Part shown: one piece after another, positions 3,964 through 63,685 of the stretch | Position numbering within the stretch: the stretch's first letter is position 1 | Layout: each line of letters opens with the position of its first letter | Assembly: GCA_944332295.1 (NCBI GenBank) | Contig: CALVJR010000004.1 | Coordinates: 4,157 to 68,156 of the forward strand | DNA length: 64,000 nucleotides | Source: an uncultured Bacilli bacterium | Lineage (GTDB): Bacteria > Bacillota_I > Bacilli_A > RF39 > UBA660 | Direction of reading: 5' to 3' | Notes under the pieces: generated by a model | Databases searched by the model: none | Seen by the model: the letters and a program-made list of their open reading frames with translations, nothing else | What the model was told of the DNA's origin: nothing | Position numbers and translations under genes: made by a program

Positions 3964-4011
3964 AAAACTACTAAAGATTGCATTTGCTACCTTTCTTTAG
4001 TAGTTTTTTTT
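3964..4011. terminator. bidirectional terminator between convergent genes
   Basis: AAAACTACTAAAG ... CTTTAGTAGTTTT stem flanked by A-run and T-run. Confidence 0.6.
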
Positions 4012-10684: not shown

Positions 10685-10776
10685 CCCTTCTATTTTACAA
10701 ATTTATTTTAACACTAATTTTCTATTTTCATTCATTTCTAGATAATTTTATTTGTTATTTACGTTAATTGCTAAAT

Positions 10777-10802
10777 AAAAATCCACAGATTTTGTGGATT
10801 TT
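10777..10802 (-). terminator. rho-independent terminator (ATCCACA/TGTGGAT stem)
   Basis: AAAAATCCACAGATTTTGTGGATTTT overlapping the adhE stop codon. Confidence 0.6.
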
Positions 10803-36463: not shown

Positions 36464-37239
36464 GTAAATTATTAAAATATGATTTTAAATCTTTATCCAA
36501 AATATCAATTCCTGTTTATCTAGTTAGTTTGTTACTGGCTTTACTTACTAGAGTTATTAATATGTTAGCGGATAAGTTTCATGTATTCTCTGTTCCTAGT
36601 GGATTTATTAGTGGTATCTTTGTTGTTGTATTGATTGCTATACCTATCGCCACTTTTATTTTTACTATTCTTAAGTTTTATCAAAACTTAATCAAAGATG
36701 AAGGATATTTAATGCATACTTTACCTGTTAGCAAAAATAGTTTAATTTTATCTAAGACTATTAGTTCTACTGTATTTATTGTTATCTCTTTTATCTTTTC
36801 TATTCTATTCTTATTTGTTGGTGTTTATGGAATTTGGTTTGATTCTAAGCTTTTATCATTAATTTGGGATTTATTTAAGCAAGTTGATACTGTATTTATC
36901 ATACTCATTATGCTTTCTATTTTAATTAGTGTTATTTTCAATCAAGTTATGATATATGCGTCTATTGCTCTTGGTCAAAAGCATAATAATAAAGTTATGT
37001 ATTCTGTAATTTATGGTGTAGTACTTTATAATGTTACTCAAATACTTTCTGTAGTAATTTTACTTCCTGTGATGTTTTTAGATCCTAATTATCAAAAATA
37101 CATTAATGGTACTTCTATTAGTGATTTTGGACTTATTAATGGATATTTATTGTTTGCTTTATTCTTATCTATATTATTTACTGTAGCATATTATGTTCTT
37201 ACCGTTAAAGTATTAGATAAAAAACTAAATTTAGGGTAA
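36457..37239 (+). CDS. ABC-associated multi-pass membrane protein (permease)
   Basis: About six hydrophobic helices. Overlaps the ATPase gene by 7 nt. Confidence 0.6.
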   Translation: MLSKLLKYDFKSLSKISIPVYLVSLLLALLTRVINMLADKFHVFSVPSGFISGIFVVVLIAIPIATFIFTILKFYQNLIKDEGYLMHTLPVSKNSLILSKTISSTVFIVISFIFSILFLFVGVYGIWFDSKLLSLIWDLFKQVDTVFIILIMLSILISVIFNQVMIYASIALGQKHNNKVMYSVIYGVVLYNVTQILSVVILLPVMFLDPNYQKYINGTSISDFGLINGYLLFALFLSILFTVAYYVLTVKVLDKKLNLG

Positions 37240-37272
37240 AAAAAGATTGCTTCTTAGGAAGCAATTTTTTTA
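37240..37272. terminator. bidirectional terminator
   Basis: ATTGCTTC-TTAG-GAAGCAAT flanked by A-run and T-run. Confidence 0.6.
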
Positions 37273-38202
37273 TGGAAGAATTAACTCTTGACCAATAGAT
37301 AGTAGATTGGATGTTAAATTATTTAATAATTTTATCTCTTCTACACTGGTATTATTATCTTTAGCTATTGACCATAGACTGTCACCTTTTTGAACTATGT
37401 ATGTTTTCTTTAATTCTTTTTTAGGAATTTTTAATTTGTCACCAATTTGTAGATTTACGGTTTCTAAATTGTTAATTTCAATTAAATCATCTACTGGTAC
37501 ATCGTATTTTTGAGAAATTAACCATAGACTATCCCCTTTTACTACCGTATAAATTTCATATTCCTCATCTTCTGGTATATCTAATTTTGGTACTTTTAAT
37601 TGTTGTCCAATATACAAATTATTACTTGTTATATTATTTAGTCTTTTTAATTCGTCTACTGTTATATCATATTTTCTGGCAATACCGTATAATGTATCTC
37701 CTTTTTGGACTGTATAAGTTTCATAAGTTGGTGTGATTGCTGTTACAGGGATAAATAATACTTGCCCTATCTGAAGTAAGTCTGAAGTTAAATTATTTAA
37801 TCTTTTTAATTCTGTAACCGTTGTATTAAACTCGCTTGCAATTTTTGATAAGGTATCTCCTTTTACTACAGTATATATATTATTTTCTGTACTCATACCT
37901 GGTGGAATATAAGTATAGCCTCCATAATCAGCGATTGCTTTTACTACACCTTCTACATAATCAATTAAATTATTTTGTAGCTTTTGTTGGTCTGCAGCAT
38001 TATCAATAAAACCATATTCTACTAAAAGTGATTGCATTGGTGTTGTTTCTCTAATAATATAGTAATAATCTTTACTAGGATCTTCTGGTAACCTTCTTTG
38101 ATAAATTTTTCTCATCTTTTGACCTGCATCACCAATATTTTCTAGTGCCATACTAGCTAATGTATCATCATTGCGAAGCGCATAGACAATTTCAGCACCT
38201 TC
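37270..38202 (-). pseudogene. 3' fragment of a split N-acetylmuramoyl-L-alanine amidase gene (end of the Amidase_3 domain plus four LysM repeats)
   Basis: The frame is open upstream of the ATG at 38151 and reads EGAEIVYALRNDDTLAS. It continues with LLVEYGFIDN and four LysM repeats of the form Y-T/I-V-x-KGD-T/S-L...IGQ. There is no own start or RBS at the true N-terminus. Confidence 0.85.
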
Positions 38203-38216
38203 TCCTCCTGGTGATA

Positions 38217-38227
38217 GTCATTGTGTA
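38217..38227. repeat. sub-terminal inverted repeat arm (left)
   Basis: GTCATTGTGTA is the exact reverse complement of 49250..49260. Confidence 0.7.
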
Positions 38228-38236
38228 GTTAATTTA

Positions 38237-38914
38237 TTATTCTTCGATTTCTTCTAATATACCCTCTATCAAATATTCATATAATACATCACTAACTTTT
38301 TGTGTACGTAATCCTGTATCTATATCCAATTGTTCCGTTGCAACACTCCCTGTTCCATTCCAATAAGCTTTTGCAATTCTATCTATAGAATTCTTATCAA
38401 AAGTAGAAATATCACAATTCCACATTCTTGTTACGATTTCCATATTACATTTAGCTATTTTTATACAGGAATCCAACACGCTATTAGTTTTCTTCAACCT
38501 AAATTTTTTTACTTTTTTTAAATTCCACCCATACCATTTACTAGCTTTTTTACAACTATCGTAATCTCCAAAAGCATAAACACACGAAAATCTTGATGGA
38601 TAATTTTTATAATCACTCACCCTTATATATTCTAATATATATTCCGTATTATATCCATTAACAACAGTCATACTATGAGATGATGGACTACTAAAAGTTG
38701 TTTTATTAGGAATAAATGGAGCATAAACGATATTCCCACAGATAAAATCTTCTATTTTATCTGGTTCTGCTGTAAGGTTTCTAAAACCACTGGATACAAT
38801 GGTTTTATTTAATTTGTAGTTATGAAAATTAATCTGACTATATGAATTTTTTCCTTGTCCAATAAAAATATAAAATACTTTGGGAGCTTCTTCATTAATA
38901 TTTAATAAATTCAT
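38237..38914 (-). CDS. hypothetical protein (225 aa), last gene of the element
   Basis: Clean ORF. No domain recognised. Confidence 0.5.
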   Translation of the reverse strand: MNLLNINEEAPKVFYIFIGQGKNSYSQINFHNYKLNKTIVSSGFRNLTAEPDKIEDFICGNIVYAPFIPNKTTFSSPSSHSMTVVNGYNTEYILEYIRVSDYKNYPSRFSCVYAFGDYDSCKKASKWYGWNLKKVKKFRLKKTNSVLDSCIKIAKCNMEIVTRMWNCDISTFDKNSIDRIAKAYWNGTGSVATEQLDIDTGLRTQKVSDVLYEYLIEGILEEIEE

Positions 38915-39096
38915 ACCTTTATATCACCTTTTTACTTCATTTCAATTTTTTTATCAAATTCTCATATTATTCTTTGCTTTTCCTTATTCATGTATTCTTT
39001 ATCAATTATTCTTGCAAACTTCTTAAAAAGCCATATTTCTTTTTTAGTATAGTAATTATTTACAATAGTTCTAGTTTCTGCTCTCAATGATGATCC

Positions 39097-40023
39097 CTAC
39101 AATAATTCTAAATATTTCTTCAACATTTCAACTTCTAACTTAGTAACTAGCTTAACAAAATCAGTATAATTACCAGTTGTATGTGCTTTATCTAAAGCTT
39201 CATAATATTTTAATCTTGATTCTTTTTTTATAATTACAGGATTATATCCACTATTCATTAAGTCTAAATTCATAAGTAATCTTGAAGTTCTTCCATTGCC
39301 ATCTATAAATGGATGTATTTTAACTAACTCACCATGTAATAGCGCTGCTTGAATTATCGGATGATATTCATTCCAAGTATTATAAGTTAATATTAATTTT
39401 TCCATTAATTCGGGAACTTTTAAATAATCTGGTGGAATATGTGTTGCGCCTTTAATAGTTACATTTTCTTTTCTATATCTTCCAGCATTTTCGTTATCAA
39501 TATCTTTTAAAATTAACTGATGAATATTTTTAATATTCCATTCACTAATTGGTTCATTATCTTTTACTAGATCATCCAAAAATAAAATTGCTTTTTCATG
39601 ATTAATCGCTTCTAAATGCTCTTTAATAGATTTTCCACCAACAGTTATTCCTTCTAAAACAACCTGTGTTTCTCGTAATGTTAAAGTATTACCTTCAATT
39701 CCATTACTATTATAAGTCCATTCTAAATTAATAGATTCTCTTAAAGATTTTAAAGTTTCTTTAGGCATTGGTCTTTTACTATCTAATTTTCTTTTTAAGC
39801 TATCTACTTCATCAAAATAATTATCGTCTAAATCAATAATAAATTTATTATCATCTGGTTTAATTATTCTTTTATCAACAGGTTTATCAGCATCAATTGG
39901 AATATTCCAACTATTACCTACTTTAACAGCACCTTCAATTCTTCCATCTTGTAATAATTGTCTTATTCTTCTTTCACTAATATTCCATTTTTCAACAGCT
40001 TCTTTTGTAGTCATAAATTCCAT
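39097..40023 (-). CDS. Fic-family protein with N-terminal HTH
   Basis: Fic motif HPFIDGNGRTSRLL, inhibitory-helix-like SNGIEGN ([S/T]xxxE[G/N]), and an N-terminal MerR/excisionase-like HTH TTKEAVEKWNISERRIRQLL. ATG 40023 follows GAGGTG. Confidence 0.85.
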   Translation of the reverse strand: MEFMTTKEAVEKWNISERRIRQLLQDGRIEGAVKVGNSWNIPIDADKPVDKRIIKPDDNKFIIDLDDNYFDEVDSLKRKLDSKRPMPKETLKSLRESINLEWTYNSNGIEGNTLTLRETQVVLEGITVGGKSIKEHLEAINHEKAILFLDDLVKDNEPISEWNIKNIHQLILKDIDNENAGRYRKENVTIKGATHIPPDYLKVPELMEKLILTYNTWNEYHPIIQAALLHGELVKIHPFIDGNGRTSRLLMNLDLMNSGYNPVIIKKESRLKYYEALDKAHTTGNYTDFVKLVTKLEVEMLKKYLELL

Positions 40024-40042
40024 ACTTTTCACCTCGATTACA

Positions 40043-40071
40043 ATTATACCGGAATCGGTAGTATTTGTCAA
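40043..40071 (-). promoter_or_regulatory. consensus sigmaA promoter of the fic gene with an embedded palindrome
   Basis: On the minus strand: TTGACA, 17 nt, TATAAT. The spacer contains the palindrome TACCGATTCCGGTA (40047..40060). A related CCGATAACGG sits just upstream (40082..40091). Confidence 0.6.
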
Positions 40072-40266
40072 TATTTTTATTCCGTTATCGGTATATTAAC
40101 TTATGAATTAGCGACAAGTTGTCGGGAATTTTTAACTTCTCGCCAAGTTGGCACGAAGTAATGTTGATAAGTCTTTTAACTTCTCGACAACCTGTCGCGA
40201 AGTTAAATTTGTGATACATACGGGTTTTAGTATTATGTACTATTCTGTGCATATTGCACAGAATTT

Positions 40267-41841
40267 TTAAATCATGAATCTATAGAAAATTTCAATATTT
40301 TTATCTTTATCAATTTCAATTTTATCAATTAATGTTTGTAAAAGTTCTCTAGTAGGTTTCTTTATATCAATTAATTCTCTTATTTTCTTTTCATATTCTT
40401 CTAATTCTTTTGCTTTAATACTTTCTTTTTTAGTGCTTTTATATTTTTCTAAATCTATCTGAGCTTTATTTAAAAGTCGTTCTGTTTCTTGAGATAATCT
40501 TTTATAAGTAACATCTGATATATTACCTCTAAATTTATCTTCATATAACATATCTATTTTTGATATATATTCTTTTATCTTGTTTTCTAAGTATCTTATC
40601 TTTTCTTTATTATCTTCCTTTCTACTATTTTTATCTGCTATTTCCTTTGATAAGACCCTAGAATCGATTTGTTTAATATAATTTTTACAAGTTGTTCTTA
40701 CTACATCAAGCAATGCTTCTTCTAATTTATCATAAGGCATAAAATGTGGTTCACATAATCTTCTTCTTGGATCTCTTGCATATTTATTACAATTAATAGT
40801 CCAATAATTATGATTCTTTCGGTAAGTAATAGTTAGTGCATTTCCACATTCTTTGCAAAATAGTAAATTTTCAAATAATCTTTTTTCTCTATGACTAACG
40901 CTTACATTAGTTCTTTTTACATTACCTTGTATTCTTTCAAAAGTTAATTTATCAACCAATGGTTCGTGTGTACCAGGAACTATGTCCCAATTGCTTTTTG
41001 GAAGAGCTTTTTTCTTTTTAGATTTATAATTTACTTTAGTCTGTGTACTTTGAACCATATCACCTGTATACATTCTGTTTTTTAGTATCTTCTTAACTGA
41101 TGATATAGTCCATTGTTCATTATATCTCATTTTAGAATTAGGATTTTTACGTTTTAAACTGCTAGGTGTTTTAATTTTATTGTCATTTAAATATGAAGTT
41201 ATATCAGATAATCCTACACCATTAGCAGCCATTTCAAATATTTTTTTAACTACTGGTGCATATTCTGGGTCAGGTATTAAATGTCCTTTTTCTTCTGGGT
41301 CTTTCATATATCCATAACTAGGATTACTTCCAATAAACTTTCCTTTCTTTCTTTTATCATTTAAAACACTTCTAATTTTAATAGAATTTTGCCTACTATA
41401 ATAATCATTACATGCAATAATGAATGTTGATGAATCATTACTTGCTTGATTAATTGCACTATCATAGTTTTCTTGCAACGATATAAATCTTATATTATTT
41501 TCTGGAAAAAAGTTTTCAATATAATATCCTGTCATAACATGATCTCTACCTAATCTTGATAAATCTTTTACTATAACTAAATTTACCATTTTATTTTTAA
41601 TATCTTCAATCATTTTAGTAAATCCAGGTCTTTCAAAATTAGTACCGGAATATCCATCATCAACATATTCTCCAACAAATATAAAACCTTTTTCTTTTAC
41701 GAAGTTCATTAATAAATTTCTTTGATTAGTAATACTTTCACTTTCTGATTCATAAGATTTTCCTTCGTCTGCTTCCGATAATCTTATATATATGACCGCT
41801 CTATAAATATTATTTGGCATTTGCATTAATCCGTTATACAT
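40267..41841 (-). CDS. large serine recombinase (TnpX/TndX-like)
   Basis: N-terminal resolvase domain (AVIYIRLSEAD, VKDLSRLGRD), a recombinase domain, a zinc ribbon CKECGN...C, and a C-terminal coiled coil. AAGGAG RBS. Confidence 0.9.
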   Translation of the reverse strand: MYNGLMQMPNNIYRAVIYIRLSEADEGKSYESESESITNQRNLLMNFVKEKGFIFVGEYVDDGYSGTNFERPGFTKMIEDIKNKMVNLVIVKDLSRLGRDHVMTGYYIENFFPENNIRFISLQENYDSAINQASNDSSTFIIACNDYYSRQNSIKIRSVLNDKRKKGKFIGSNPSYGYMKDPEEKGHLIPDPEYAPVVKKIFEMAANGVGLSDITSYLNDNKIKTPSSLKRKNPNSKMRYNEQWTISSVKKILKNRMYTGDMVQSTQTKVNYKSKKKKALPKSNWDIVPGTHEPLVDKLTFERIQGNVKRTNVSVSHREKRLFENLLFCKECGNALTITYRKNHNYWTINCNKYARDPRRRLCEPHFMPYDKLEEALLDVVRTTCKNYIKQIDSRVLSKEIADKNSRKEDNKEKIRYLENKIKEYISKIDMLYEDKFRGNISDVTYKRLSQETERLLNKAQIDLEKYKSTKKESIKAKELEEYEKKIRELIDIKKPTRELLQTLIDKIEIDKDKNIEIFYRFMI

Positions 41842-42062
41842 TTACTACTCCTTTCTTTTTTGCATAACAATCAAAGCCATTTAAAGTATAATACTTTATT
41901 TTCAAACTGACGAATGTGCTAATTTTTAATTAGTACACTTTTTATATATTTATTTAACAAATCTACCAAATTAAGAGCATTATCATCTTTTCTAAAAGTT
42001 TCCGTAATTTTAAACATAAGCCACCTCATAAAATTTTATGAGTGTCTTTTTCATTTTATTTC

Positions 42063-42578
42063 TTATTCCTCCTCGTATATATCACTTAATAATTTTTTTA
42101 ACTCTTCTTGTTCTTCAAGAGTTGCTTCATTTTTAGGTATTAATTTACCATGCCAGTATTCATTACCAACTTCATCTTTATAATAAATACTATCTTCTTT
42201 TTTATTTAATTTATTATTATATTGTTTAAATTTTTGTTTATAGTCTGTATTAAAATTATTTTTAATACTTTTTAATTTTAAATTTAAGACCTCTGATAAT
42301 TTAATTATACGCTTTGAATTATTTTTACTTGTATTATCATATTTAGTCTTAATATAACCAAAGGTGGCTAAATTACTTATACTTTTTGATACAGTTACTG
42401 ACGTTACATCATAAATATCACAAAAATATCTATTAGTAGCCCAACAATAACCATTCTTCTTACAAAGACTTATTATATGAATTAATAATAATCTTTCTAA
42501 AAAAGTTAATCTATTATCTCTTAATACAGATTTTAAAATAAATACATTTATGAATTCTTCTTTATCCATAATAATCAA
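42063..42578 (-). CDS. winged-helix DNA-binding protein (phage/plasmid replication- or regulator-like)
   Basis: LLLIHIISLCKKNGYCWATNRYFCDIYDVTSVTVSKSISNL resembles wHTH domains of mobile-element regulators. Confidence 0.45.
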   Translation of the reverse strand: MIIMDKEEFINVFILKSVLRDNRLTFLERLLLIHIISLCKKNGYCWATNRYFCDIYDVTSVTVSKSISNLATFGYIKTKYDNTSKNNSKRIIKLSEVLNLKLKSIKNNFNTDYKQKFKQYNNKLNKKEDSIYYKDEVGNEYWHGKLIPKNEATLEEQEELKKLLSDIYEEE

Positions 42579-42713
42579 TATATAAGATATATCTTAAGAT
42601 AATAAGAGTGCACTTTTAAATGTTATTTTCCCTAGGTATTTTCATCTTATAACAAATTAAAATAAAAAGAAATTGTACAAAATATGCAAAAGGAGTACAT
42701 TTCTGTACTCCCA

Positions 42714-43169
42714 CTACAATGATTCTATATCTTTAAACTCATAATTTATGTTTTCTTTTAACAATCTTTTTAATATAGACATCAATTGCATAATTATGTA
42801 ATTAATTTCATCAAAAGATACCTTAATATCAATAACATCTTTATTCGGATGTAACAATTGATTTCTCAATCCATCATCACTGTAATATTTATTTAAAATT
42901 TGAATAGTTTGTTCTGGCAAAACTTCTGTTTTATTATTTTGAATTATTGAAAGTAAAGTCTTCATTATACCTTGTTCATAATGTTCAACATCTGCATCGG
43001 GCACTAATTTGTATATCTCCAAAACCATTCTTTCAATTAAAGGAAAGCTATAATACAAACTCTCAATAGTTCCAGAATTTAAAAAGTCTGTATCTATTTC
43101 ACCAATTATATTTTTAGTATTATCATCTTCCAATGCTTTTACAAAATCTAAATATGTAAATCTAACCAT
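42714..43169 (-). CDS. HEPN-like protein (151 aa) with Rx4H motif
   Basis: GLRNQLLH (R102..H107, nt 42866..42849, verified codon by codon). All-helical-looking. Overlaps the upstream gene by 22 nt. Confidence 0.5.
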   Translation of the reverse strand: MVRFTYLDFVKALEDDNTKNIIGEIDTDFLNSGTIESLYYSFPLIERMVLEIYKLVPDADVEHYEQGIMKTLLSIIQNNKTEVLPEQTIQILNKYYSDDGLRNQLLHPNKDVIDIKVSFDEINYIIMQLMSILKRLLKENINYEFKDIESL

Positions 43170-43654
43170 TCTATCACTTCCTTTATAGTTTTCAAATCCA
43201 ACTTTGTTAATTGGTTATCAAATATTAATTTACTATTCCCTATTTCTTTATTATATTTAAAATTATAATATTTTGAGAAATCTAATCTTTCATCACTTTT
43301 ACTTTTAATCTTATTAATCAAATATTTAAATCCTTGAAAATTAATATTATTATTTTCAGACAAATTATACATCATTCTATAAATATCATGATCATAATTC
43401 TCTATTTCTTCTAAAGATAAATATGTTTCCAAAATTAATTTTGTTTTAAAAAACATTTCGATGTAAAAAAACAAATTAAAGAATGTTAATGGTTTAATTA
43501 TTAAATTATTTGTACAACAATTTAAAATGGACAATGAATTATCTTTTAAATATATATAATTATCTATTATTTCTTGTCTTAGCTGTCTAGTTTTTTCTGA
43601 AATAGTATCGGAAATATCCGGTAAATACTCTAATTCAAATGCTTTATTTTTCAT
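43148..43654 (-). CDS. hypothetical protein (168 aa), possible classical HEPN fold
   Basis: EMFFKTKLILE...YDHDIYRMMYNL and YYNFKY resemble the E..lKa.l...tHdL..L / Y...RY layout of classical HEPN domains. This is a weak, by-eye match. Confidence 0.4.
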   Translation of the reverse strand: MKNKAFELEYLPDISDTISEKTRQLRQEIIDNYIYLKDNSLSILNCCTNNLIIKPLTFFNLFFYIEMFFKTKLILETYLSLEEIENYDHDIYRMMYNLSENNNINFQGFKYLINKIKSKSDERLDFSKYYNFKYNKEIGNSKLIFDNQLTKLDLKTIKEVIEWLDLHI

Positions 43655-45404
43655 TCAATAACCAACTTATAAAAATTAGCCCTGAAAAGGTCACTACTAA
43701 TGATGTTACTAATTGTTCATTAATTAGCGTCCCATGCATAATATTATTTCTTAAATTTAAACCAGATTTCTCGTACAAAATATAATTTAAATACATTATT
43801 CCATCAACTTTCGACTCATCATCTTTATAAATTTCAAATAAATTATTTAAATTTGTAAAACCATCTTTACAAACTGCAAGATTATTTCTTTCCAAAATTT
43901 TTATAACATTAACTTCTATTGATAATATATTACTAACAACTATAGCATATTCGTTATTAAAATCATAACCAATTGATTCTTTTAATTCCTTAATTATGCT
44001 TTTAAAATCTGATTTAGATATTGTTGAAATCAAAATATTTTGATGCAATTGAAATGTTGTAGATAAATATTTTAGTAATTCTTCATAAAAGTTTGAACTT
44101 AATTTATTTAATAATTTTGGATGAGTTTCAGTATATTCAATACCTTTTTCATCAAAATATTTTTTAAAGTTATCATCATTAACTTTTTTTCTATCTTCCA
44201 AACGTAATGAATAAACTTCTCTCTTTGAATCTATAGTATATTTAGAAACCAAACTCAGCATAGGATGTTCTGCATATGATTCTAAAGCCTGATATAATTC
44301 TGATGTAAAATTTATTTTTGAGGCTGCATATAGCTTAAATTTGTTATCTAATAAGCTTTTTCTATATTCTTCTACTTCTTTTGTTGGAACTTTATGTTCA
44401 TATTTATATTCATGCATTTCAGACTTCACATAGTCATTATCAGAAACAATATATCTCTTTAGACTTAATAAATGCGATAAACATTCTTGAATTTTTCCCT
44501 TTTGATTATCCTGGTAACTTTCTATATTTTTTGAAAGATACAATAATTCTTTTTTCAAATTTTCAATTTCTGATAACCCTTGTATAAAACTATAATCTTT
44601 ATTTTTAAGTTTATTTACTAATTTATTAGTTACATTAATATACATATTAATTATTTTGTTATTTGAATCTAAATCTAAACAATTATCTTTATCTAATTCA
44701 AATATTACTTCTTTTGCATAATTATATCCACCAAAAGTATCTAAAGAATCCTTTATATATTCCATATATACATCTATATGTTTTGTCTTTTCAACATCAT
44801 AATATATTATATTAGATATATGCTTTTTGCTTGTAATAAACAATTCTATCAGCTCATTATAGTCTTTTTTCATAGATTTTAAATTATTAAATATTTTACT
44901 TATAATTTCTCCATCTATAAAAATATCATTATCTAAACCAAAATAAATAATTTCTTTATAAAACAAATACAAATCGTTAGGTGTTTCAATGAATAATTTT
45001 TTTCTAACATTTAAACTATCCACGACATTTCTAAAATCATCTTTTGCCAATTTATAATCATTACAATTTGTTTTGTACTCATTTGAATTAATTGTATTAT
45101 TATATGTATACAAAAAATCTTGAATAATATTTTTATAATATAATAAATCGTTATTATCAGCATAAAGATACAAATAAAATATAATTTCTAAATCTTGTTT
45201 TGATATTCTTATTTCATGACTATTAAAAATAGTAAATAATCTATTATCGTGATAATAAAAAGAATTATATATTCTTAAAAACTTTCTAAACTCCAACAAA
45301 AACATTTCTCTACTACTTTGATTATTAAAAGTATAATCAAAATTCTCATTTAATTGATTACCAGAAAGTTTATCTTCTAGAAATTCCTTTAATATTTTTT
45401 TCAA
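43644..45404 (-). CDS. large hypothetical protein (586 aa) with C-terminal Rx4H HEPN-like motif (DUF4209-like)
   Basis: GLNLRNNIMHGT (R552..H557, nt 43751..43734, verified) followed by a hydrophobic tail. TTG start with AGGAGG six nt upstream. Confidence 0.5.
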   Translation of the reverse strand: MKKILKEFLEDKLSGNQLNENFDYTFNNQSSREMFLLEFRKFLRIYNSFYYHDNRLFTIFNSHEIRISKQDLEIIFYLYLYADNNDLLYYKNIIQDFLYTYNNTINSNEYKTNCNDYKLAKDDFRNVVDSLNVRKKLFIETPNDLYLFYKEIIYFGLDNDIFIDGEIISKIFNNLKSMKKDYNELIELFITSKKHISNIIYYDVEKTKHIDVYMEYIKDSLDTFGGYNYAKEVIFELDKDNCLDLDSNNKIINMYINVTNKLVNKLKNKDYSFIQGLSEIENLKKELLYLSKNIESYQDNQKGKIQECLSHLLSLKRYIVSDNDYVKSEMHEYKYEHKVPTKEVEEYRKSLLDNKFKLYAASKINFTSELYQALESYAEHPMLSLVSKYTIDSKREVYSLRLEDRKKVNDDNFKKYFDEKGIEYTETHPKLLNKLSSNFYEELLKYLSTTFQLHQNILISTISKSDFKSIIKELKESIGYDFNNEYAIVVSNILSIEVNVIKILERNNLAVCKDGFTNLNNLFEIYKDDESKVDGIMYLNYILYEKSGLNLRNNIMHGTLINEQLVTSLVVTFSGLIFISWLLNEK

Positions 45405-45477
45405 TTTTTACCTCCTACTACTAAAAAAAGCGTAATACAAACCCAAAATAATTTAAGCCTGTACTAGCGCCTTTTTA

Positions 45478-46662
45478 TTATCTATTTCCTTTAATACGGT
45501 TATGCGTTCTACATAACATTTGACAATTAATTATATCAGTAGAACCACCCTTACTCCATGCTGTAACGTGGTCAGCATCCATATCTTTATAATCCCATAT
45601 TTTGACTTTATTTGATAAATTTTCAATTACACACATAGGGCAATTAGAAACTGCTTTCAATTTTGCTTCTTGCGTCTGTCTTTCATAAACTGTTTTTTTT
45701 GTCGGCTCATCAAAGATTCTAATATTAAGTAATTTAGTATCTTCTTTTCTACAACCATTTAATATATATTCGTAGCATCCTTTTTTATCGGTAACAAAAT
45801 AATCACTATATAATTCATTTAATTTTTTTGAAATTTCATTTGAATTATAGGGATTCTTATGATATTTTTCGTACATTTTCCCCCAATTTATATATTGCAT
45901 TTCATCTTTTACATCAATGAATATAGTAGAAACCCAATTGATAACATCATTAAAATATGAAGTTAGTTCATTTATATTATCATCATGTCTGTGATTTGCC
46001 ATATATTTTTCAAGATTACCATCTTTTTCCCAATCCTTTGAAACCCAAGATAAAGCAACTTCTAACAAACCTTGTCTTTTTACTTCTACTTTCATATAAC
46101 TCAACCACTTATGTAAATTTGAGTTCTGAGAATTGCTAAATATTTCTTTTGCTTTAGTTATAAAAGTTCCACTATATATAGAATTTAATAGTTCTTGATT
46201 ATTTAGTGGCTTTCCGGCGATATTGATTGTTTTAAACCACTCCTTTATTTCTGATTCATCACCACTACAAATATAAATAGTCAATTCAGTATTATATATT
46301 TTTTCTTGCTTATCTTTAGGCAACGATTCAAATTTATATGGAATATCATTTTCATCTATCCATGCGAATTTATTTGTTATATATCTACCTATGCTAGTTA
46401 TTCTTTGCTGTCCATCAAGAATTTCATATTTATCTCTTTCTGTTTCAACAAAATATATTAGCCCTATCGGATATCCTTTTAATAAAGAATCAATAACAGC
46501 AACGTCATCTTTTCCGTTTGCATAAATATAATTTCTTTGATATTCTGGCTGAATAGTTAATTTCCCAGCCCAACCAAACAACCCTTTTTCTTCTGATTCA
46601 CTATATTGAAATCCTTCGCAAATTTGTCTAATAGTTAAATCTGTTCTTAATCTAGTTTTCAT
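45478..46662 (-). CDS. DUF262 (ParB/Srx-like) domain protein with C-terminal HNH nuclease (GmrSD-like)
   Basis: [13 protein letters not shown]262 signature. C-terminal Cys pairs plus [12 protein letters not shown]...[18 protein letters not shown] motif. Confidence 0.75.
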
Positions 46663-47773
46663 CTACATCCTCTACTTTCTGAATTAATATTCTATCATAT
46701 ATTTGTTTACCATTAATATATCCTCTATGACGTTGAGATGGAATGATCCTTATTCTTTCAACTTCTGGTGTATTATCCCCAGAATGTGTGTGTCCTATTA
46801 TTCTAAATTGTTTAGGATTATGAAACTTAAGAAAAGTTATTGGAACCCCCATAACACCAACATAATCAGATGGAATCGCATCATATCTTGGGACTTCTAA
46901 TGCATCATAATTATCAAATTTTGGATAAGTATTTATTCCGTAATCTTTTTCTAACTTTTTTATTAATGGCTTGTTATATCTTAAATTATCTTGCATCGTC
47001 ATCAAACTTAGCGTTGTATGACGTCTTTTTAAATCAATATTAGTATACCAACATATATTTCCCATACTACGCCATTTTTGTCCCTTTTCATCTATCCAAA
47101 ATCTTGTTTCTCTAGGTTCCGAATCTTCGGGAACTTTAAATGCCATATCGCCAGCATATTTTCCTAACCACATCTTACCATCTCTTACAAGAGGAAATGT
47201 TTCTTTAGTAGTCGCATCATTTTCATTACCAATTATAATAAATTGCTTATTTGATTCTATTAACCAAGCTAGAAATTCTCTAAATAATGAAAACGGTGGA
47301 TTTGTTATTATAATATCTGCCTCATCCCTCAAAGTTTTGACTTCATCAGATCTAAAATCACCATCACCTTCAAGGTAATCCCATTCTAAATCATTAATAT
47401 CAATTCTTCCAGATTTATTTTTATCTCTATCTAATGTAAATATTTTACCATGTGAATTTGTTTTTGTTTTATCATATTTAGGACTTTCTTGCTCAAATAA
47501 TGATAATTGAACAAAAACTGATGTTTTTTTATCATTAGCATAACTCGTACTAATAAGTTTCTTTAATCCTAATAATTCAAAATTCTGTGCAAAATATCTT
47601 GTAAAATTACTCCATTCCGGATCATCGCACGGAAGTAATATTATTTTATCCTTGAAAACGTCTGGATTATATTCTAAATAAGCATTCATTTCTTTTTCTA
47701 TATCTGAGTATTCTGTGTAAAACTCGTCATCCTTCTCTTTTTTTGCTCTCTTTAAACTTTCGTTATTAGCCAT
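46652..47773 (-). CDS. N6-adenine DNA methyltransferase
   Basis: Catalytic IIITNPPFS (NPPF, motif IV) and an N-terminal DEFYTEY segment. Overlaps the downstream gene by 11 nt. Confidence 0.75.
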
Positions 47774-47777
47774 TCTA

Positions 47778-48434
47778 TCACTTCCTATTAACTAAAATTT
47801 TCTCTAATTTGTGTTCTAACTGATATAAAGTATTGGAACCGGATAAGTCTCCACCTAAGTCTTTGAGAGCCGAATATAATATTTGGCGTTTGGACGGATT
47901 TGAATTGTTTGGGACTTCTTTATCATTTTCTTTTTCGTAAATACCCAATGTTCCATCTTCTTTTGTTTTTGAATAATAATATTTACCGGTTAAACTAGAA
48001 TGAAACTGAATATTTTTAAAATGATGTCTATTTTTAGATAGTGATAATGCTTCTTTTTCTTCTTCTATTTCTTCTTTAGTTTCTTTCCACAAATGTAATC
48101 TATCAGTTGTACCATTAAATTCTGCCATACTTTCAAATGCAGAATATATTTCTTCTGGTTTAATATGATAAAATTCTCTTACTCTTATTTTATCACCTAT
48201 TTTTTCTTTACTTCTTAATTCTGGATTTAAAGTATCAATAAAGTTATGTAATTTTTTATCGGTTAATCTTTCCATAACATCAAATGTTGCATATATATGA
48301 AAGGAAAAAGGTACTGCTTCAGAATTATTTAACTGTTTAACTCTAGCATCGACATCATCTGCATAACCAATTTTTACATATTCTGGGAATGATGGATTGG
48401 TTAATATATAAATTACCCCACATTTTTGCTTCAT
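47778..48434 (-). CDS. T5orf172 / GIY-YIG-like domain protein
   Basis: GVIYILTN...VKIGYADDVDARVKQLN matches the T5orf172 (GIY-YIG superfamily) N-terminal pattern. AGGAG RBS. Confidence 0.65.
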   Translation of the reverse strand: MKQKCGVIYILTNPSFPEYVKIGYADDVDARVKQLNNSEAVPFSFHIYATFDVMERLTDKKLHNFIDTLNPELRSKEKIGDKIRVREFYHIKPEEIYSAFESMAEFNGTTDRLHLWKETKEEIEEEKEALSLSKNRHHFKNIQFHSSLTGKYYYSKTKEDGTLGIYEKENDKEVPNNSNPSKRQILYSALKDLGGDLSGSNTLYQLEHKLEKILVNRK

Positions 48435-48468
48435 GTTTTCACACTCCTAAAGATATAAATACATGTAT

Positions 48469-48477
48469 ATTATAGCA
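48469..48477 (-). promoter_or_regulatory. extended -10 promoter element for the cargo operon
   Basis: The minus strand reads TGCTATAAT about 35 nt upstream of the ATG at 48434. The -35 is weak. Confidence 0.4.
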
Positions 48478-48838
48478 TATAATTTGACATTTTTGGATTT
48501 TGTCATTAAATTACATACCATTTTTCAATTTTTGCTATATAATTATTTCAAAATTACGGTTTGAGATATTCCCCATAATTTTGCAAATGGCGGGAGTAAA
48601 TTTGCAGTGCTGGCTAAGACAAGATTTTACTAACCTGAAAGAGTCACCAATTTTTTTAAATTATTTAAAATCAATTTTTATCAAAAAAAGACTCTATTTA
48701 ATTTTTTTAAATAGAATCTTACATTTTAAATTTGTTTTTTCAATTTTAGTGGACTAATTTTTAAAATAATTAAGTTATATTTTATTTTTAAAAATTCTTC
48801 AAATTATTCATCTTTTATATCTTTTTTACCACTTATCA

Positions 48839-49195
48839 TCATGATTCTCCATAAATTAGTTCTTTCAAAACTATTTCTTCAGCTATATTTTTTATGTTAT
48901 TCATCTTACCTACCCATAAAATTTGATTATTTTGTTTCAACCTTTCATCAACATTTTCTTTTTCAGCAAGTAATAATATTAAATTATTTATTCTACTATT
49001 AGCAATAATATCGACATCATGTAGATATTCATTTAACTTATCATTCATAAGTAATTCAGTATATAATCCTCTTTTATTCTTCTTTAGATACTCTAATTTA
49101 AGCAATCCATACTTTCCTATATTAAATCTTTCTTTATCTTCTAATTTCAAATTTGGTAATAAATAATCACCTTTTCTAGTGTAACTAATATTCAT
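48839..49195 (-). CDS. tnpV: TnpV-like transposon protein
   Basis: N-terminal ISYTRKGDYLLPNLKL and GKYG..L.YLK resemble TnpV of Tn4451-family elements, from memory of that family. Confidence 0.6.
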   Translation of the reverse strand: MNISYTRKGDYLLPNLKLEDKERFNIGKYGLLKLEYLKKNKRGLYTELLMNDKLNEYLHDVDIIANSRINNLILLLAEKENVDERLKQNNQILWVGKMNNIKNIAEEIVLKELIYGES

Positions 49196-49249
49196 AACAT
49201 TTCTCCATTTCTTTCTATTTTTATTCAGCTTTAATTGTTATACATTCGT

Positions 49250-49260
49250 TACACAATGAC
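49250..49260. repeat. sub-terminal inverted repeat arm (right)
   Basis: TACACAATGAC is the exact reverse complement of 38217..38227. Confidence 0.7.
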
Positions 49261-49261
49261 C

Positions 49262-49549
49262 ATCCCCACCTCCGGAATTGATATGATTCGATATTAAAAT
49301 AGCATCGGGATCTCCATTAAACGCTTCGTTTGCTCTTCTTAATCTTTCTGTTCTAGAAATATCTTCATCTGTTGTTTTTACTGATACTACAGGAATACCT
49401 AACTCTTGTAATCTTCTTGTCATATAATTTGCTGCTTGTAAGTTAAAATCTTTCTCTTTTAAATTTCCACTGATTGCTCCAGGGTCACTTCCTCCATGAC
49501 CAGAATCTACTACAACACCCGTTATTTTCCTTTCGTTCATCTTTTTCAC
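49262..49549 (-). pseudogene. 5' fragment of the split N-acetylmuramoyl-L-alanine amidase gene (first ~95 aa of Amidase_3)
   Basis: VVVDSGHGGSDPGA...EKDFNLQ...ILISNHINSGGG, then the frame runs into element DNA (DGHCVTNV, stop at 49238). No signal peptide. Confidence 0.85.
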
Positions 49550-49613
49550 CTCTACATTAAAATATGTAAATGAGATGATTTTGCTACTATTAGAAAAATC
49601 TTAAAATAGATTT

Positions 49614-51053
49614 TTACCTCTTAACATATGCTTTTATTTGTCTTTTTGCTTTGGTTGTTTTTACTTTGTCTAACCATTCAATGTTAGGTCCTAAAGATAG
49701 GGTATCAGTAATAATTCTTACTCTATCTTTATTATGTAGAATATAATCACAATCTACAGGGTTATCGTTTACTATGGCTGCAACCATTTTATTTCCTATA
49801 TCAGTATGAATTTTATAAGCCAGGTCAATAGCAGTTGATCCTAATGGTAATTCCATTATCTCTCCTTTATTTGTATATACATATACTCTTTGTGATAATA
49901 ATTCTTGTTGTATACGTTTTACAAATTCTTGATTGTCTGTACAATTTTGGTCTATTTCTACTAAGGATTCAAAAAACTGATACTTATTTTTTAAATCTTC
50001 TTGCATTATATTTCTAGCATTACCTTTGTTTATATTCCAAAAAGCTGTTAATCCATATGATGCGATTTTTTCTTTTTCAAAAGTTCTTATCTGAATTTGA
50101 ACTAGTCTACCATCTGCTCCAAATACTGTAGTATGAAGAGAGCTATACAGATTAGTTTTGGGATTTGCTATGTAGTCTTTAAATCTATTATTCATAGGAA
50201 AATATTTATCATGAACTAGTCCTAAAGTTGGATAGCATTTAGCAACATTATCAACAAGGATTTTTAATGCTAATAAATCATGAATATCCGATAATTTTTG
50301 TCCTTGCTCTAGACGTTTATATATTCCATAGATATTTTTTGTTCTTATTTTTAGCTCATGTGGAATATTGGCATTAGTTAATACTTTATTTATTGTTTGT
50401 AACATTTCTTCGCGACATTGTTTGGTATCTTCATCTATTTTCATTCTTATGTCACGTACTCTTTGATAAGCATCTGAATTATAATACTTTAAAGATAAAT
50501 CTTCTAATTCACTTTTTATTATATGCATTCCTAGTCTGTCCGCTAAAGGGACATATAACAATAATGTTTCTTTGGCATTTTCTTTTTGCTTAAATTCTGA
50601 TTTAAATTGTAATGTTCTCATATTGTGTAGTCTATCAGCAAGCTTTATTATAATAATTCTTACATCATTTGTTATACTAGTAATAATTTTTCTAGTATTT
50701 GCTAGATTTTGTTCTTGTTTGCTTGCGAAATTCATTCTACTAATCTTAGTTACTCCATCTACTAAGTTTGCAACATCATCATTAAAATCTATAGCAATTT
50801 GCTCTTTGGTAATTTCGGTATCTTCTAGCGTATCATGTAATAGTGCCGCACAAAGGGTGTCCGTATCTGCATACATTTCAGCTAGAGTATACGCTACATT
50901 TAATGGATGAGTAATATAATCTTCTCCGCTTTGACGTTTTTGACCTTTATGTAATTCTTCTGCATAGTAATATGCTTTTTTTATCATTTCTAGTCCTTCT
51001 ATGTTGTATTCTGCTACTTTTAAAAGTAAATCATTTACAGTTAAATTATTCAT
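49614..51053 (-). CDS. rel: RelA/SpoT-homologue (p)ppGpp synthetase/hydrolase, short form (HD + synthetase + TGS only)
   Basis: HD motif HDTLEDT, synthetase motif DYIANPKTNLYSSLHTTV, TGS domain near the C-terminus, and no ACT/RRM region. ATG 51053 follows AGGAGG. Confidence 0.85.
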   Translation of the reverse strand: MNNLTVNDLLLKVAEYNIEGLEMIKKAYYYAEELHKGQKRQSGEDYITHPLNVAYTLAEMYADTDTLCAALLHDTLEDTEITKEQIAIDFNDDVANLVDGVTKISRMNFASKQEQNLANTRKIITSITNDVRIIIIKLADRLHNMRTLQFKSEFKQKENAKETLLLYVPLADRLGMHIIKSELEDLSLKYYNSDAYQRVRDIRMKIDEDTKQCREEMLQTINKVLTNANIPHELKIRTKNIYGIYKRLEQGQKLSDIHDLLALKILVDNVAKCYPTLGLVHDKYFPMNNRFKDYIANPKTNLYSSLHTTVFGADGRLVQIQIRTFEKEKIASYGLTAFWNINKGNARNIMQEDLKNKYQFFESLVEIDQNCTDNQEFVKRIQQELLSQRVYVYTNKGEIMELPLGSTAIDLAYKIHTDIGNKMVAAIVNDNPVDCDYILHNKDRVRIITDTLSLGPNIEWLDKVKTTKAKRQIKAYVKR

Positions 51054-51274
51054 ACACACCTCCTAATAAATAAAAAATGCGCCATGGCGTATTGCCTTAG
51101 CGCTTGTATTATTTTAAAGAAGCAAAACATGAGTATGATGACATGATTAAAGAAATTATTGAAAAATGTAACATATATTTTATATTTTCTTTATAACTCA
51201 CACTCATAACTGCACCTCTTTAAATATTAGTATTCAATTTATCACTAAAATTTAAAGTTGTCAAGATACTTTTC

Positions 51275-61604: not shown

Positions 61605-62738
61605 TTATTCACTAGCACTTAATTTTACATCAACAGTATGTTCTTCTCCATCTCTAATATAGGTTACTTGGATAGTATCTCCTGCTTGATGTTGATATAA
61701 TTCGTATCTTAAGTAAGCGAAATCTTCTACTTCTTTTCCATCAATTTTAGTAATAACATCACCTGTTGTTAGTCCAGCATCATAAGCACCTGATCCTTCT
61801 TCTGCTTGTACTACAACAACACCTTCTGTAATATTTCTATCAATTATAATTCTATTCCTATAAAGTCCTGCTGAATCACTTGCGTTTACCATAGAAATAC
61901 CTAATACTGGCCAAGCAATATCTTCGCCTTTTTCAAGTGTTTCAATATGATTCATTGCATATTCGATTGGAATTGCAAATCCCATACCTTCTATTTCTTC
62001 TGATGCTAATTTTAGAGAACAAATACCAATTACTTCTCCATTTGCATTTAATAATGGTCCTCCACTATTTCCAGGATTAATAGATGCATCAAATTGTAGT
62101 ACACGCATTACCCAATCGTTGCTATAGCCAGTGTAGTCTTCAAAAGTATTGTTAGAGGTACTAACAGATACCATACGATCTTTTCCCGAAAGGACTCCAG
62201 ATGTTACAGTTCCTTGGAACTCTTCTCCCATGGGAGTTCCTACCGTAAAGATAGTATCTCCTAGTTTCATTTCTTCACTACTTCCTATGTTAGCAACCAT
62301 GGTAACATTACTTTTATCAATTCTAAGTACTGCTAAATCTAGGTATTGATCTCCACCTAGTACTGTGGCTTCTGCTTCTGTATCATTTGACATCGTTACC
62401 GTTACTTTATCTGCTCCATCTACTACGTGGTAGTTGGTTAATAAATATCCATAATTATTATCTGTTTTATAGACGAAGGCAGATCCTGTTGAGGTTAATG
62501 TATTTTTTTGATAAGAAGAAACCATGGCAACTGCATCATATATTTTGTCTACTGCAGCTGCTAAAGAACTCTTTTCATATACTTGAGTATCGTTTCTTGT
62601 TACAACGGTATTTCCATTCGTTCCTAATACTTCACTTACTAATGGTGTCCATTTTAATAAAGCAAACATTATAATTCCGCCCATGACAAATGAAAATACT
62701 ATTAAAAATATTGTTTTTATATTTTCTTTCTTTTTCAC
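61605..62738 (-). CDS. htrA: HtrA/DegP-family serine protease with PDZ domain
   Basis: N-terminal TM, NYHVV (His), D, GNSGGPLLN (Ser), and a C-terminal PDZ. GTG start overlapping the upstream stop (GTGA). Confidence 0.9.
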   Translation of the reverse strand: MKKKENIKTIFLIVFSFVMGGIIMFALLKWTPLVSEVLGTNGNTVVTRNDTQVYEKSSLAAAVDKIYDAVAMVSSYQKNTLTSTGSAFVYKTDNNYGYLLTNYHVVDGADKVTVTMSNDTEAEATVLGGDQYLDLAVLRIDKSNVTMVANIGSSEEMKLGDTIFTVGTPMGEEFQGTVTSGVLSGKDRMVSVSTSNNTFEDYTGYSNDWVMRVLQFDASINPGNSGGPLLNANGEVIGICSLKLASEEIEGMGFAIPIEYAMNHIETLEKGEDIAWPVLGISMVNASDSAGLYRNRIIIDRNITEGVVVVQAEEGSGAYDAGLTTGDVITKIDGKEVEDFAYLRYELYQHQAGDTIQVTYIRDGEEHTVDVKLSASE

Positions 62739-63685
62739 TCTTTATCTACGCTCCTTTCGATTCCTGCTAAATCTTTCCAATTTTCAGGGAATCCCATTCT
62801 ATTTAATACTTTTTCTATTTTTATTGATGTCAAATTATAGTTCAATGTCTGAACTACATTTTCTAATTCTATGGTCATATTTTTAAAGTCCTCTGTTAAT
62901 AGCATCTGACGCATAATAATTAGAAGTGCAAATAAATCTGACTTACCATATATATATTCTCCATTTTCTTTTGGTATATCCAATATTTGATGATATATGG
63001 TGTCATCAATTTGTTTTTGAGTTCTATTTTCATAAAGAATATCTTCATGGGCACATAAATTTCTATAATTGGCAAGTATTGGTAAGTATACCAAAAGATC
63101 ATCTACATCAACATTATAAATTTTTCCAATTTCTTCTTGGTCTTCTGGCTTTAAGATAGAAAACATTTCACTTACAATTCCAAATGACAATACTTTTACT
63201 AATATCCATAGTGGAATATAGCCATAGTTAGATACATAATGAAGAGTGGCTGAATGCTGACTACCATTGACTCTTATTTGCCTTTTCATCTTTTTTAATA
63301 AGTCATTCACTTGTCTTTGTCTTTCTGGATTATGAGTAAAGTTTTTTGTTTTTAAGTAATCTCTCTCCCTATATCCATATTTTTTAGACAGTTGATAAGA
63401 TGTAATTGATTTTAAGTTGTTTTCAATTACTAATAAATATTTAAATATTACATTACGAAATGAACGATCAAATAAGAATAAGCTATAAAGTTCTTCAAAA
63501 GTTGTTCCTTTGATAAACGCTTTTTCTTTATCTGACTTATAAAAAAGATGTCTGTAGCCATTTAAGAAAAAATAATTTTCTCTTAATAGCACTTGTTTTG
63601 CATATTTCTCATCATTAATTATTAAACCTTTGTGTTTAAATATTTCAATTTGTTCATCTAGATTTTTAAATTGTTTCTCTATCAT
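62735..63685 (-). CDS. Abi_2 (AbiD/AbiF-like) abortive-infection family protein
   Basis: The N-terminus LDEQIEIFKHKGLII and NYFFLNGY is typical of Abi_2. HEPN-type YRNLCAH (Rx4H). Confidence 0.75.
   Translation of the reverse strand: MIEKQFKNLDEQIEIFKHKGLIINDEKYAKQVLLRENYFFLNGYRHLFYKSDKEKAFIKGTTFEELYSLFLFDRSFRNVIFKYLLVIENNLKSITSYQLSKKYGYRERDYLKTKNFTHNPERQRQVNDLLKKMKRQIRVNGSQHSATLHYVSNYGYIPLWILVKVLSFGIVSEMFSILKPEDQEEIGKIYNVDVDDLLVYLPILANYRNLCAHEDILYENRTQKQIDDTIYHQILDIPKENGEYIYGKSDLFALLIIMRQMLLTEDFKNMTIELENVVQTLNYNLTSIKIEKVLNRMGFPENWKDLAGIERSVDKE

Follow-up and report, generated by a model that had tools for sequence, protein, structure and literature searches.

The 64-kb stretch of DNA analysed here (the window, whose positions supply all coordinates unless a locus is named) carries on its minus strand an amidase gene, coding for an Amidase_3 domain and four LysM repeats, that is split by an integrated element of about 11 kb encoding a large serine recombinase. 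The insertion interrupts the stretch coding for the metal-site motif NSGGG|EGAE, and both the split and the in-frame restoration that precise excision would produce are confirmed by the sequence as real and exact. The gene probably acts late in sporulation, in the mother cell, where its product would be the functional counterpart of CwlC of Bacillus subtilis. There is about an even chance that excision would be a step of mother-cell development, by analogy with the logic of skin in sigK, SPbeta in spsM and gin in gerE. On the most likely reading, the locus represents a new host gene and a new lineage for intervening elements of the skin/SPbeta/gin type, the main rival being a tolerated inactivation of the gene.

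The preliminary description of this DNA had placed two amidase open reading frames (ORFs) about 11 kb apart, and re-reading of the ORFs together with the full-length Amidase_3 match bore out both their coordinates and their separation. ORF 49549..49238 (minus strand, as are all genes below unless stated) encodes the Amidase_3 N-terminus down to ...ISNHINSGGG, followed by eight unrelated codons (DGHCVTNV) and a stop at 49238. Two starts are available, GTG at 49549 and ATG at 49540, the latter being the start used by homologues, and the 5' fragment of the amidase proper spans 49269..49540 (codons 1 to ~91, ending ...HINSGG). The 3' fragment (37270..38206) continues with G-EGAEIVY... and holds the remaining Amidase_3 portion and the four LysM repeats. 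Upstream of ORF 37270..38151 the reading frame stays open as far as 38217 and reads LSPGG-EGAEIVYALRNDD..., with the E codon beginning at 38202; LSPGG-EGAEIVY is the reading of this 3' frame across the attR junction. Joined in frame, the fragments give 1218 nt coding for 405 amino acids from GTG 49549, the length (~405 amino acids) that had been predicted, or 402 from ATG 49540. Residues 12-186 of the joined protein match positions 1-173 of the 174 of the Pfam Amidase_3 profile, and four LysM domains are recognised in addition. A search of 5.8 billion proteins returned dozens of uninterrupted homologues of 399-402 amino acids with 84-93% identity. The comparison with uninterrupted orthologues that had been proposed at the outset could hence be made: the joined protein is colinear with the intact ones across the predicted joint, its own joint HINSGGGEGAEI is the same as theirs, and the joint reads exactly ...ISNHINSGGGEGAEI... 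in 11 aligned full-length homologues. The protein has no signal peptide, as had been noted, and its catalytic domain begins at residue 9. The pattern NSGGGxGxE does not establish orthology to CwlC, since this is the general metal-site motif of Amidase_3, present also in Cwp6 of Clostridioides difficile, and the C-terminus is of LysM and not of SPOR type. The best solved-structure matches of the amidase are C. difficile Cwp6 and another amidase, 4rn7.

With GG taken as the crossover, the integrated element spans 38207..49268 (minus strand; 11,062 bp) and all its genes are co-oriented with the amidase gene. The left attachment site attL (49250..49276, minus strand) reads TCCGGAGG|TGGGGATGGTCATTGTGTA, with the crossover GG at 49270-49269, and the right one, attR (38198..38227, minus strand), reads TACACAATGACTATCACCAGG|AGGAGAAGG. 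The reconstructed attB DNA, ATCAATTCCGGAGGAGGAGAAGGTGCTGAAATT, equals the empty site of the relative L002. Because attL follows attB through ...CCGGAGG and attR matches it from AGGAGGAGAAGG, the exchange lies inside the shared AGG, which is the only sequence common to attL, attR and attB; there is no long target duplication. The reconstructed attP, TACACAATGACTATCACCA-GG-TGGGGATGGTCATTGTGTA, is an imperfect palindrome centred on GG, 17 of whose 19 positions are symmetric when counted by eye. A repeat finder, run independently of the junction analysis, delimited a terminal inverted repeat whose left arm (49240..49268, 29 nt), the P' half-site of attP, is 79% complementary to the right arm at 38209-38237. 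Comparison of the intact locus L001 with the window by blastn breaks at 49259 and 38208, with an overlap of 12 nt. The 60-mers reconstructed for the junctions are ATCGAATCATATCAATTCCGGAGGAGGAGAAGGTGCTGAAATTGTC for attB and AACTACACAATGACTATCACCAGGTGGGGATGGTCATTGTGTAACG for attP. Joining had originally been placed at a GA; the protein product is the same, but the data locate the crossover at GG within AGG, 5 nt away, since the GA lies 5 nt beyond the crossover and outside the region shared with attB. To judge from these sites, an exchange between attL and attR at this GG would free the element as a circle and leave behind attB, and with it the protein of uninterrupted relatives. The 11-kb element with a large serine recombinase that was first described is borne out by the recombinase domains and the attP inverted repeat around a 2-bp crossover, and an empty attB exists in L001-L005 and other loci.

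The assignment of the amidase to the mother cell draws on its promoter. A sigma-K-type promoter is predicted at 49558..49584 (minus strand), with the -35 element GC at 49584-49583, a spacer of 16 nt and the -10 box CATATTTTA at 49566-49558, and a ribosome-binding site, GAGGTG, lies 5 nt downstream of the -10 box. The sigma-K consensus of B. subtilis is AC-N16-17-CATAnnnTA; the -10 element of sigma-E is similar, so that sigma-E is also compatible with the amidase motif. In all orthologues checked, down to ~50% protein identity, the motif [A/G]C-N16-17-CATAnnnTA stands 2-9 nt before the ribosome-binding site and persists while nnn and the spacer sequence vary; the -10 boxes read CATATTTTA, CATAACCTA, CATACGTTA, CATATGGTA, CATAGATTA, CATATTATA, CATAAAATA and CATACAATA. 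In three species the motif comes immediately 3' of a terminator. Taken alone, the strict sigma-K motif turns up in the window about as often as by chance (9 observed vs 7.3 expected), and only a comparative and composite test is therefore informative. The composite of motif, ribosome-binding site and start codon was found 15 times in 631 kb of RF39 DNA and 0-2 times in simulated sequences. Twelve of the occurrences precede the amidase gene and three precede a 140-amino-acid single-domain Hydrolase_2 (CwlJ/SleB-type) gene, the sole other family in the 631 kb. These Hydrolase_2 genes (140-144 amino acids; L022:14301-14723, L024:4438-4869 and L037:5179-5613) come from more distant RF39-like contigs, where they are neighbours of the amidase locus; AC-N16-17-CATAnnnTA and a ribosome-binding site precede each of them. 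Since two hydrolases with sporulation-specific Bacillus counterparts share the promoter, this is good though indirect evidence for late mother-cell expression. The mother-cell assignment, then, is made because the protein has no signal peptide and because every orthologue checked has a sigma-K-type promoter that is shared only with the CwlJ-like gene. The mother-cell role, at first only suggested, is now backed by this conserved promoter, and RF39 is predicted to sporulate from its gene content (PMC10868615).

The amidase gene is a recurrent target in relatives. The genome_contigs collection, with one genome per species, contained 30 loci with the gene, 29 of them classifiable, and at this species level 18 of the 29 loci (~62%) are interrupted, at three sites and by three recombinase lineages (31-55% identity). 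The gene is intact in 11 loci (L001-L005, L011, L015-L019). Thirteen (L006-L010, L012, L023-L029) are split at NSGG|GEGAE, always joining at AGG; three (L020-L022) at the GHGG motif near residue 17; and two inside the LysM motif KGD(T/S)|L, in repeat 2 of L013, where the shared core is GGTGATAC, and in repeat 3 of L030. Within the NSGG|GEGAE class the element-side arms form several subfamilies, and most recombinases are 53-55% identical to that of the window (95% in L029). In L022 the recombinase, directly upstream, is 31% identical to the window's, and those of L013 and L030 are 35-37% identical. When the 92-residue N-terminal fragment was used as a query, the best 120 of 211 scored clusters were all truncated (87-153 amino acids, 55-96% identity). 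What the elements have in common is the recombinase with a tiny ORF immediately before it and, in some of them, an HTH_36 protein, and nothing else. Counterparts of the tiny ORF occur in all three lineages, 30-60 amino acids long, with a helix of the form hydrophobic-x-D/E-L-I-x-x-Y-L. The cargo is different in every element, with restriction-modification systems, toxin-antitoxin pairs and ATPases among it. The 3' fragments, and the recombinase genes not cut by contig ends, are all unbroken in the 18 interrupted loci, and the amidase, with 4-6 LysM copies, is under purifying selection (ratio of nonsynonymous to synonymous substitution rates, dN/dS, of 0.09 for the 3' fragment).

Further arrangements were noted in three cases. 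At L015:2412-2760 the 5' end of the amidase gene is repeated (289 bp, 98% identical) and runs into an element-type arm, GGAGG|TGGGGCAGTAGTC...; a full-length amidase (9984-11398) with its own sigma-K-type promoter follows 7.3 kb downstream; a truncated recombinase gene stands at the contig end, and an element carrying or restoring an intact amidase copy is possibly involved. At L007:10020-10080 the element-side arm of attR, CTAATCACATAAAATCTTTCCGGAGG, resembles the left arm of the host attB, and tblastn matched the amidase there from residue 70; either a leftover duplication or a tandem site may account for this. The protein P0003 (404 amino acids, 93% identical to the joined protein) has the N-terminus MNFNIIFNIWDFLLPS-HGGSDPG..., in which foreign sequence enters the gene at GHGG, and close relatives of the window organism therefore also have insertions at this first site.

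The elements are, by sequence comparison, horizontally mobile. The recombinase and Fic protein of L029 are 94-95% identical to those of the window while the host amidase is only ~50% identical, and L038 is a copy of the window element, with an identical TnpV protein, on the attB arm of a different species. Long-term vertical inheritance was rejected by a co-divergence test, in which the recombinases of L008 and L009 differ by a synonymous divergence (dS) of 0.21 and the flanking host genes by 1.0-1.5. Junctions identical to those of the window are found on independent contigs of other samples, L040 (from ERZ28614770/SAMEA6814413) being 100% identical to it; ERZ24773425, ERZ26778540 and SRR12730712 are further samples with this element. 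The split is therefore not an assembly artefact. From this and from the horizontal spread it follows that the recombinase is active. By the same mobility, the low dN/dS of the split gene is not assignable to the split state.

Reading from attL inwards, the first gene of the window element encodes a TnpV-family protein of 118 amino acids (48839..49195; PF14198, E=4.6e-39); 43 nt separate its start from the stop codon that ends the truncated amidase ORF, and no terminator-like site was reported in between. Family matches identify the next genes as a candidate defence protein of the T5orf172 / PDC-S57 type (218 amino acids, 47778..48434) and an EcoRI-like adenine methyltransferase of type II (46652..47773), and the following GmrSD_N + HNH nuclease (45478..46662) fits the model of a type II restriction enzyme. 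Three genes at 42714..45404 are without family assignment (586 amino acids, with a weak DUF4209 match, 168 and 151 amino acids). An HTH_36 protein (42063..42578), part of a module shared between elements, resembles phage and plasmid replication initiators. It is followed by the tiny ORF of 32 amino acids (41919..42017; MFKITETFRKDDNALNLVDLLNKYIKSVLIKN), which adjoins the recombinase gene on its upstream side and is a candidate for an accessory or directionality factor; a sigma-A-like promoter for the recombinase is predicted at 41906-41877. The large serine recombinase itself (524 amino acids, 40267..41841) combines Resolvase, Recombinase, Zn_ribbon_recom and weak DUF4368 domains (PF00239 at residues 15-168, PF07508, PF13408; phrog_95 integrase, E=2e-99), and its N-terminal RLSEAD motif holds the serine. 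Its closest annotated relative is TndX of Tn5397 (35% identity over 86% of the length), and the NCBIfam XisF model is matched weakly, far below the cut-off. Between the recombinase and Fic genes lie three 30-nt direct repeats (40101..40203), each with a short palindrome (e.g. CGACAAGTTGTCG), which could be an operator, iterons or terminators. A helix-turn-helix (HTH) + Fic protein (SoFic / PDC-S04-like, by family match; 39097..40071) and a DUF2441 protein of 225 amino acids (38237..38914), the last element gene, complete the set. No phage structural, packaging or lysis genes were found in the element, its PHROG matches being to an integrase, a replication initiator, a methyltransferase, an HNH nuclease and unknowns, and no relaxase, mobilisation or conjugation domain was found among its ORFs of at least 118 amino acids. 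An Rfam scan of 36500-50500 gave no match. Prophage identity was rejected: the element has no phage genes, and in the relative L037 from IMG/VR the phage-like genes, recognised by inspection, lie outside the element only. With TndX as the closest recombinase, TnpV present, and phage and conjugation genes not found, the element is classed on its gene content as a small integrative element of the TndX/TnpV type with anti-phage defence genes as cargo.

For such elements, a gene that serves the terminally differentiated mother cell alone would be a low-cost landing site. The recombinase, apparently transcribed from the sigma-A-like promoter, may act alone like TndX and TnpX, which are reported to catalyse both insertion and excision without a directionality factor, or together with TnpV or the tiny ORF. 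Its excision of the element in the mother cell would rebuild the amidase gene, and the forespore would retain the element; in the window element, transcription running on from the amidase promoter into tnpV could tie excision to late sporulation. Such programmed reconstitution is favoured because purifying selection is seen despite ~62% interruption, because decay is not seen, because three lineages converge on the gene and because skin, SPbeta, vfbin, vrin, gin and yin offer a parallel. The fuller proposition, that a late mother-cell lysis amidase is a landing pad shared by at least three lineages of defence islands, which would excise in the mother cell to rebuild it, is tentative and, taken as a whole, rather unlikely.

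Several points speak against programmed reconstitution: the insertions are young, the lysis amidase may be dispensable and nothing ties excision to sporulation. The excised-circle junction GACYATCRCSAGGTGGGGATGGTC gave two chance hits in JGI metagenome contigs, on contigs of 63-70% G+C, and a longer attP pattern had no match in IMG/VR viral contigs, the searches having covered assembled contigs. No sigma-K-type promoter of the form AC-N16-17-CATAnnnTA precedes any element gene, and the recombinase promoter is sigma-A-like in all lineages. In most elements a CATA box stands 26-32 nt before the start of the tiny ORF, with an inconsistent -35, and it partly overlaps a micro-ORF, which may explain part of its conservation. 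TnpV is not kept at the attL end of other elements; these start with AAA_21, PIN_8/sigma70_r4 or Metallophos genes, and a general rule by which tnpV would always open the element on the attL side, under the host promoter, was rejected. The -35 of the window itself is GC and not the canonical AC, and the exact reconstituted protein of this strain is absent from the protein collection, the best match being 93% identical. No sporulation genes were recognised by eye in the 64-kb window; to our knowledge RF39 has never been cultured and its spores have never been observed, so that sporulation in the genus is a prediction only. The evolutionary youth of the insertions also means that intact fragments are no proof that reconstitution is selected. 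As to the circular form, contigs encoding DUF2441 or TnpV proved to be all integrated copies or cargo variants.

The main rival is a plain, tolerated insertional inactivation, in which the amidase is dispensable, the conserved motifs serve as attB, excision is rare and unregulated and the gene is off in carriers. Single mother-cell lysis amidases are dispensable in B. subtilis, large serine recombinases often integrate within ORFs, and the defence cargo could offset the cost. The element genes showed no regulated promoter, the attP junction was not seen in metagenome or viral contigs, and intact gene fragments are to be expected anyway from elements that are recent and mobile. Tolerated inactivation accords less well with strong purifying selection (dN/dS 0.09) on a gene interrupted in ~62% of species representatives, and with 18 interrupted loci in which no decayed fragment or recombinase was seen. 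Nor does it readily account for three recombinase lineages on one gene of ~1,300 (our estimate for a ~1.4-Mb genome), and the truncated copy with element arm beside a full-length copy in L015 hints that loss of the amidase matters. We regard it as a serious possibility, somewhat short of probable.

A reversible vegetative switch of the 'active lysogeny' type, by which stress-driven or stochastic excision and re-integration would toggle an autolysin in a subpopulation, would fit the sigma-A-like promoter of the recombinase and the reported ability of TndX/TnpX-type enzymes to work in both directions without a directionality factor. The Logan contigs L042 and L043 (1-30) start within the host arm, 27 and 30 nt short of the crossover, as would be expected at a graph branch if attL and an empty attB coexist in the sample; excision could cause this, and mixed strains explain it equally well. 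Since, moreover, the amidase promoter is conserved as sigma-K type and not sigma-A, and attP was not observed, such a switch is improbable. That the split is an assembly chimera, or the amidase a remnant prophage endolysin, is effectively refuted. Amidase_3 with LysM and no signal peptide is a common endolysin architecture, but the junctions are identical on independent contigs from several samples, and the chromosomal context is conserved across species with no phage structural genes nearby.

Programmed reconstitution would have its closest counterpart in gin of Bacillus cereus ATCC 10987 (GirC + GirX), which interrupts gerE. Like the window element, gin is not a phage, carries restriction-modification genes and a large serine recombinase, and is inserted in the coding region of a mother-cell gene of the sigma-K period, whose ORF is rebuilt by precise excision (PMC5595907). 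It differs in being 28.6 kb long, in having three recombinases and in that its excision during sporulation was demonstrated (PMC5595907), whereas the window element has 11 kb, a single TndX-like recombinase and TnpV, and its excision is inferred from sequence; host gene (an amidase), host (RF39), the three insertion sites and the very high occupancy are also distinct. The skin element (sigK) and SPbeta (spsM) of B. subtilis, skinCd of C. difficile, and vfbin, vrin and yin are likewise large-serine-recombinase elements in mother-cell genes, and in them the germ line keeps the element while the terminal cell restores the gene (PMC4191935, PMC5025042, PMC10747680). All of these are, however, prophages or their remnants with a recombinase or directionality factor under sporulation control, while in the window element neither phage genes nor a sporulation-type promoter were found. 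In the heterocyst-specific fdxN element of cyanobacteria, too, a large serine recombinase (XisF) excises an element from a gene that only a terminally differentiated cell requires; phylum, cell type and regulation differ, and the similarity is at family level only.

In its machinery the window element is closer to Tn5397 (TndX) and Tn4451/Tn4453 (TnpX, TnpV) of clostridia and enterococci, with which it shares a distant TndX-type recombinase and TnpV, and like them it would excise as a circle. Tn4451 and Tn5397 have a mobilisation (TnpZ/oriT) or conjugation module and antibiotic resistance cargo, whereas neither module was detected in the window element and its cargo is defensive. The crossover dinucleotide of TnpX and TndX is reported to be GA; in the window it is GG/AG within AGG, and the target is one specific conserved gene. 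In Tn5397 (L060:2261-2401; NZ_KP345886.1) an unannotated ORF of 46 amino acids just upstream of tndX ends in ...TLQHLIKRLIKNEV, a C-terminal helix resembling that of the RF39 tiny ORFs (41919-42017 in the window), and may be a conserved, undescribed partner of TndX-type recombinases. The amidase resembles CwlC, the sigma-K-dependent mother-cell lysis amidase of B. subtilis, in domain layout (N-terminal Amidase_3, no signal peptide, C-terminal peptidoglycan-binding repeats) and in its sigma-K-type promoter; the repeats are of SPOR type in CwlC and LysM here.

The host is, by its sequence matches, an RF39 gut bacterium like CAG-877 / Candidatus Faecimonas. The best-matching loci come from metagenome-assembled genomes labelled uncultured Bacilli, Tenericutes or Mycoplasmatota, and from Candidatus Faecimonas, and the G+C content of the window is 21-34%. 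Candidatus Faecimonas is the GTDB genus CAG-877 of the order RF39, with a genome of ~1.4 Mb and 28% G+C (PMC8035907), and CAG-877 is placed in the family UBA660 (PMC10868615). On its gene content, RF39 is expected to have thin cell walls and sporulating species among its members, with spoIIGA, spoIIM/P/Q and spoIIIAH present (PMC10868615). Around the amidase, the order RelA-type gene, amidase, ABC transporter is kept across species at 84-95% identity, and the neighbourhood showed no phage structural genes. Upstream of the amidase, the RelA/SpoT-family gene (49614-51059; 481 amino acids) matches positions 1-451 of the 687-position TIGR00691 profile and, since the match ends at 451, is without the C-terminal regulatory part; the short form (479-490 amino acids) also occurs in relatives. 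In one relative a TnpB / Cas12f-like gene (OrfB_IS605; L056:3332-4462) is inserted in the conserved flank upstream of the amidase. Elsewhere in the window, outside the locus described here, a 316-amino-acid ORF resembling an abortive-infection (Abi) protein (62735-63685) and a 1048-amino-acid SNF2-type helicase (4010-7156) were recognised by eye only.

The papers cited here name sigK, spsM, spoVFB, spoVR, gerE and yabG as interrupted sporulation genes (PMC4191935, PMC5595907, PMC10747680), and in the literature we found neither an amidase or cwlC-type gene nor an RF39 host reported as an interrupted sporulation locus. A CwlC-like amidase and an uncultured, genome-reduced RF39 bacterium would hence extend the short list of sporulation genes with excisable elements. 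The unusual features of the case are three sites in one gene, very high occupancy, defence-island cargo, machinery of the TndX/TnpV type and the genome-reduced uncultured host. The attachment sites and recombinases, in several subfamilies with one shared 2-bp core, are well defined and could serve as orthogonal integrases. Small defence islands in this gene link the flow of anti-phage genes to a developmental 'safe harbour': if the landing-pad proposition is true, excision would both restore the host function and free a circular island for horizontal spread, and the passage of elements with neither phage nor conjugation genes from one species to another would be explained. A sigma-K-type mother-cell programme in RF39 would then have independent genomic support as well. 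The sigma-K-type promoters before CwlC-like and CwlJ-like genes are new sequence-level support for RF39 sporulation, which bears on the transmission of these abundant human and animal gut bacteria.

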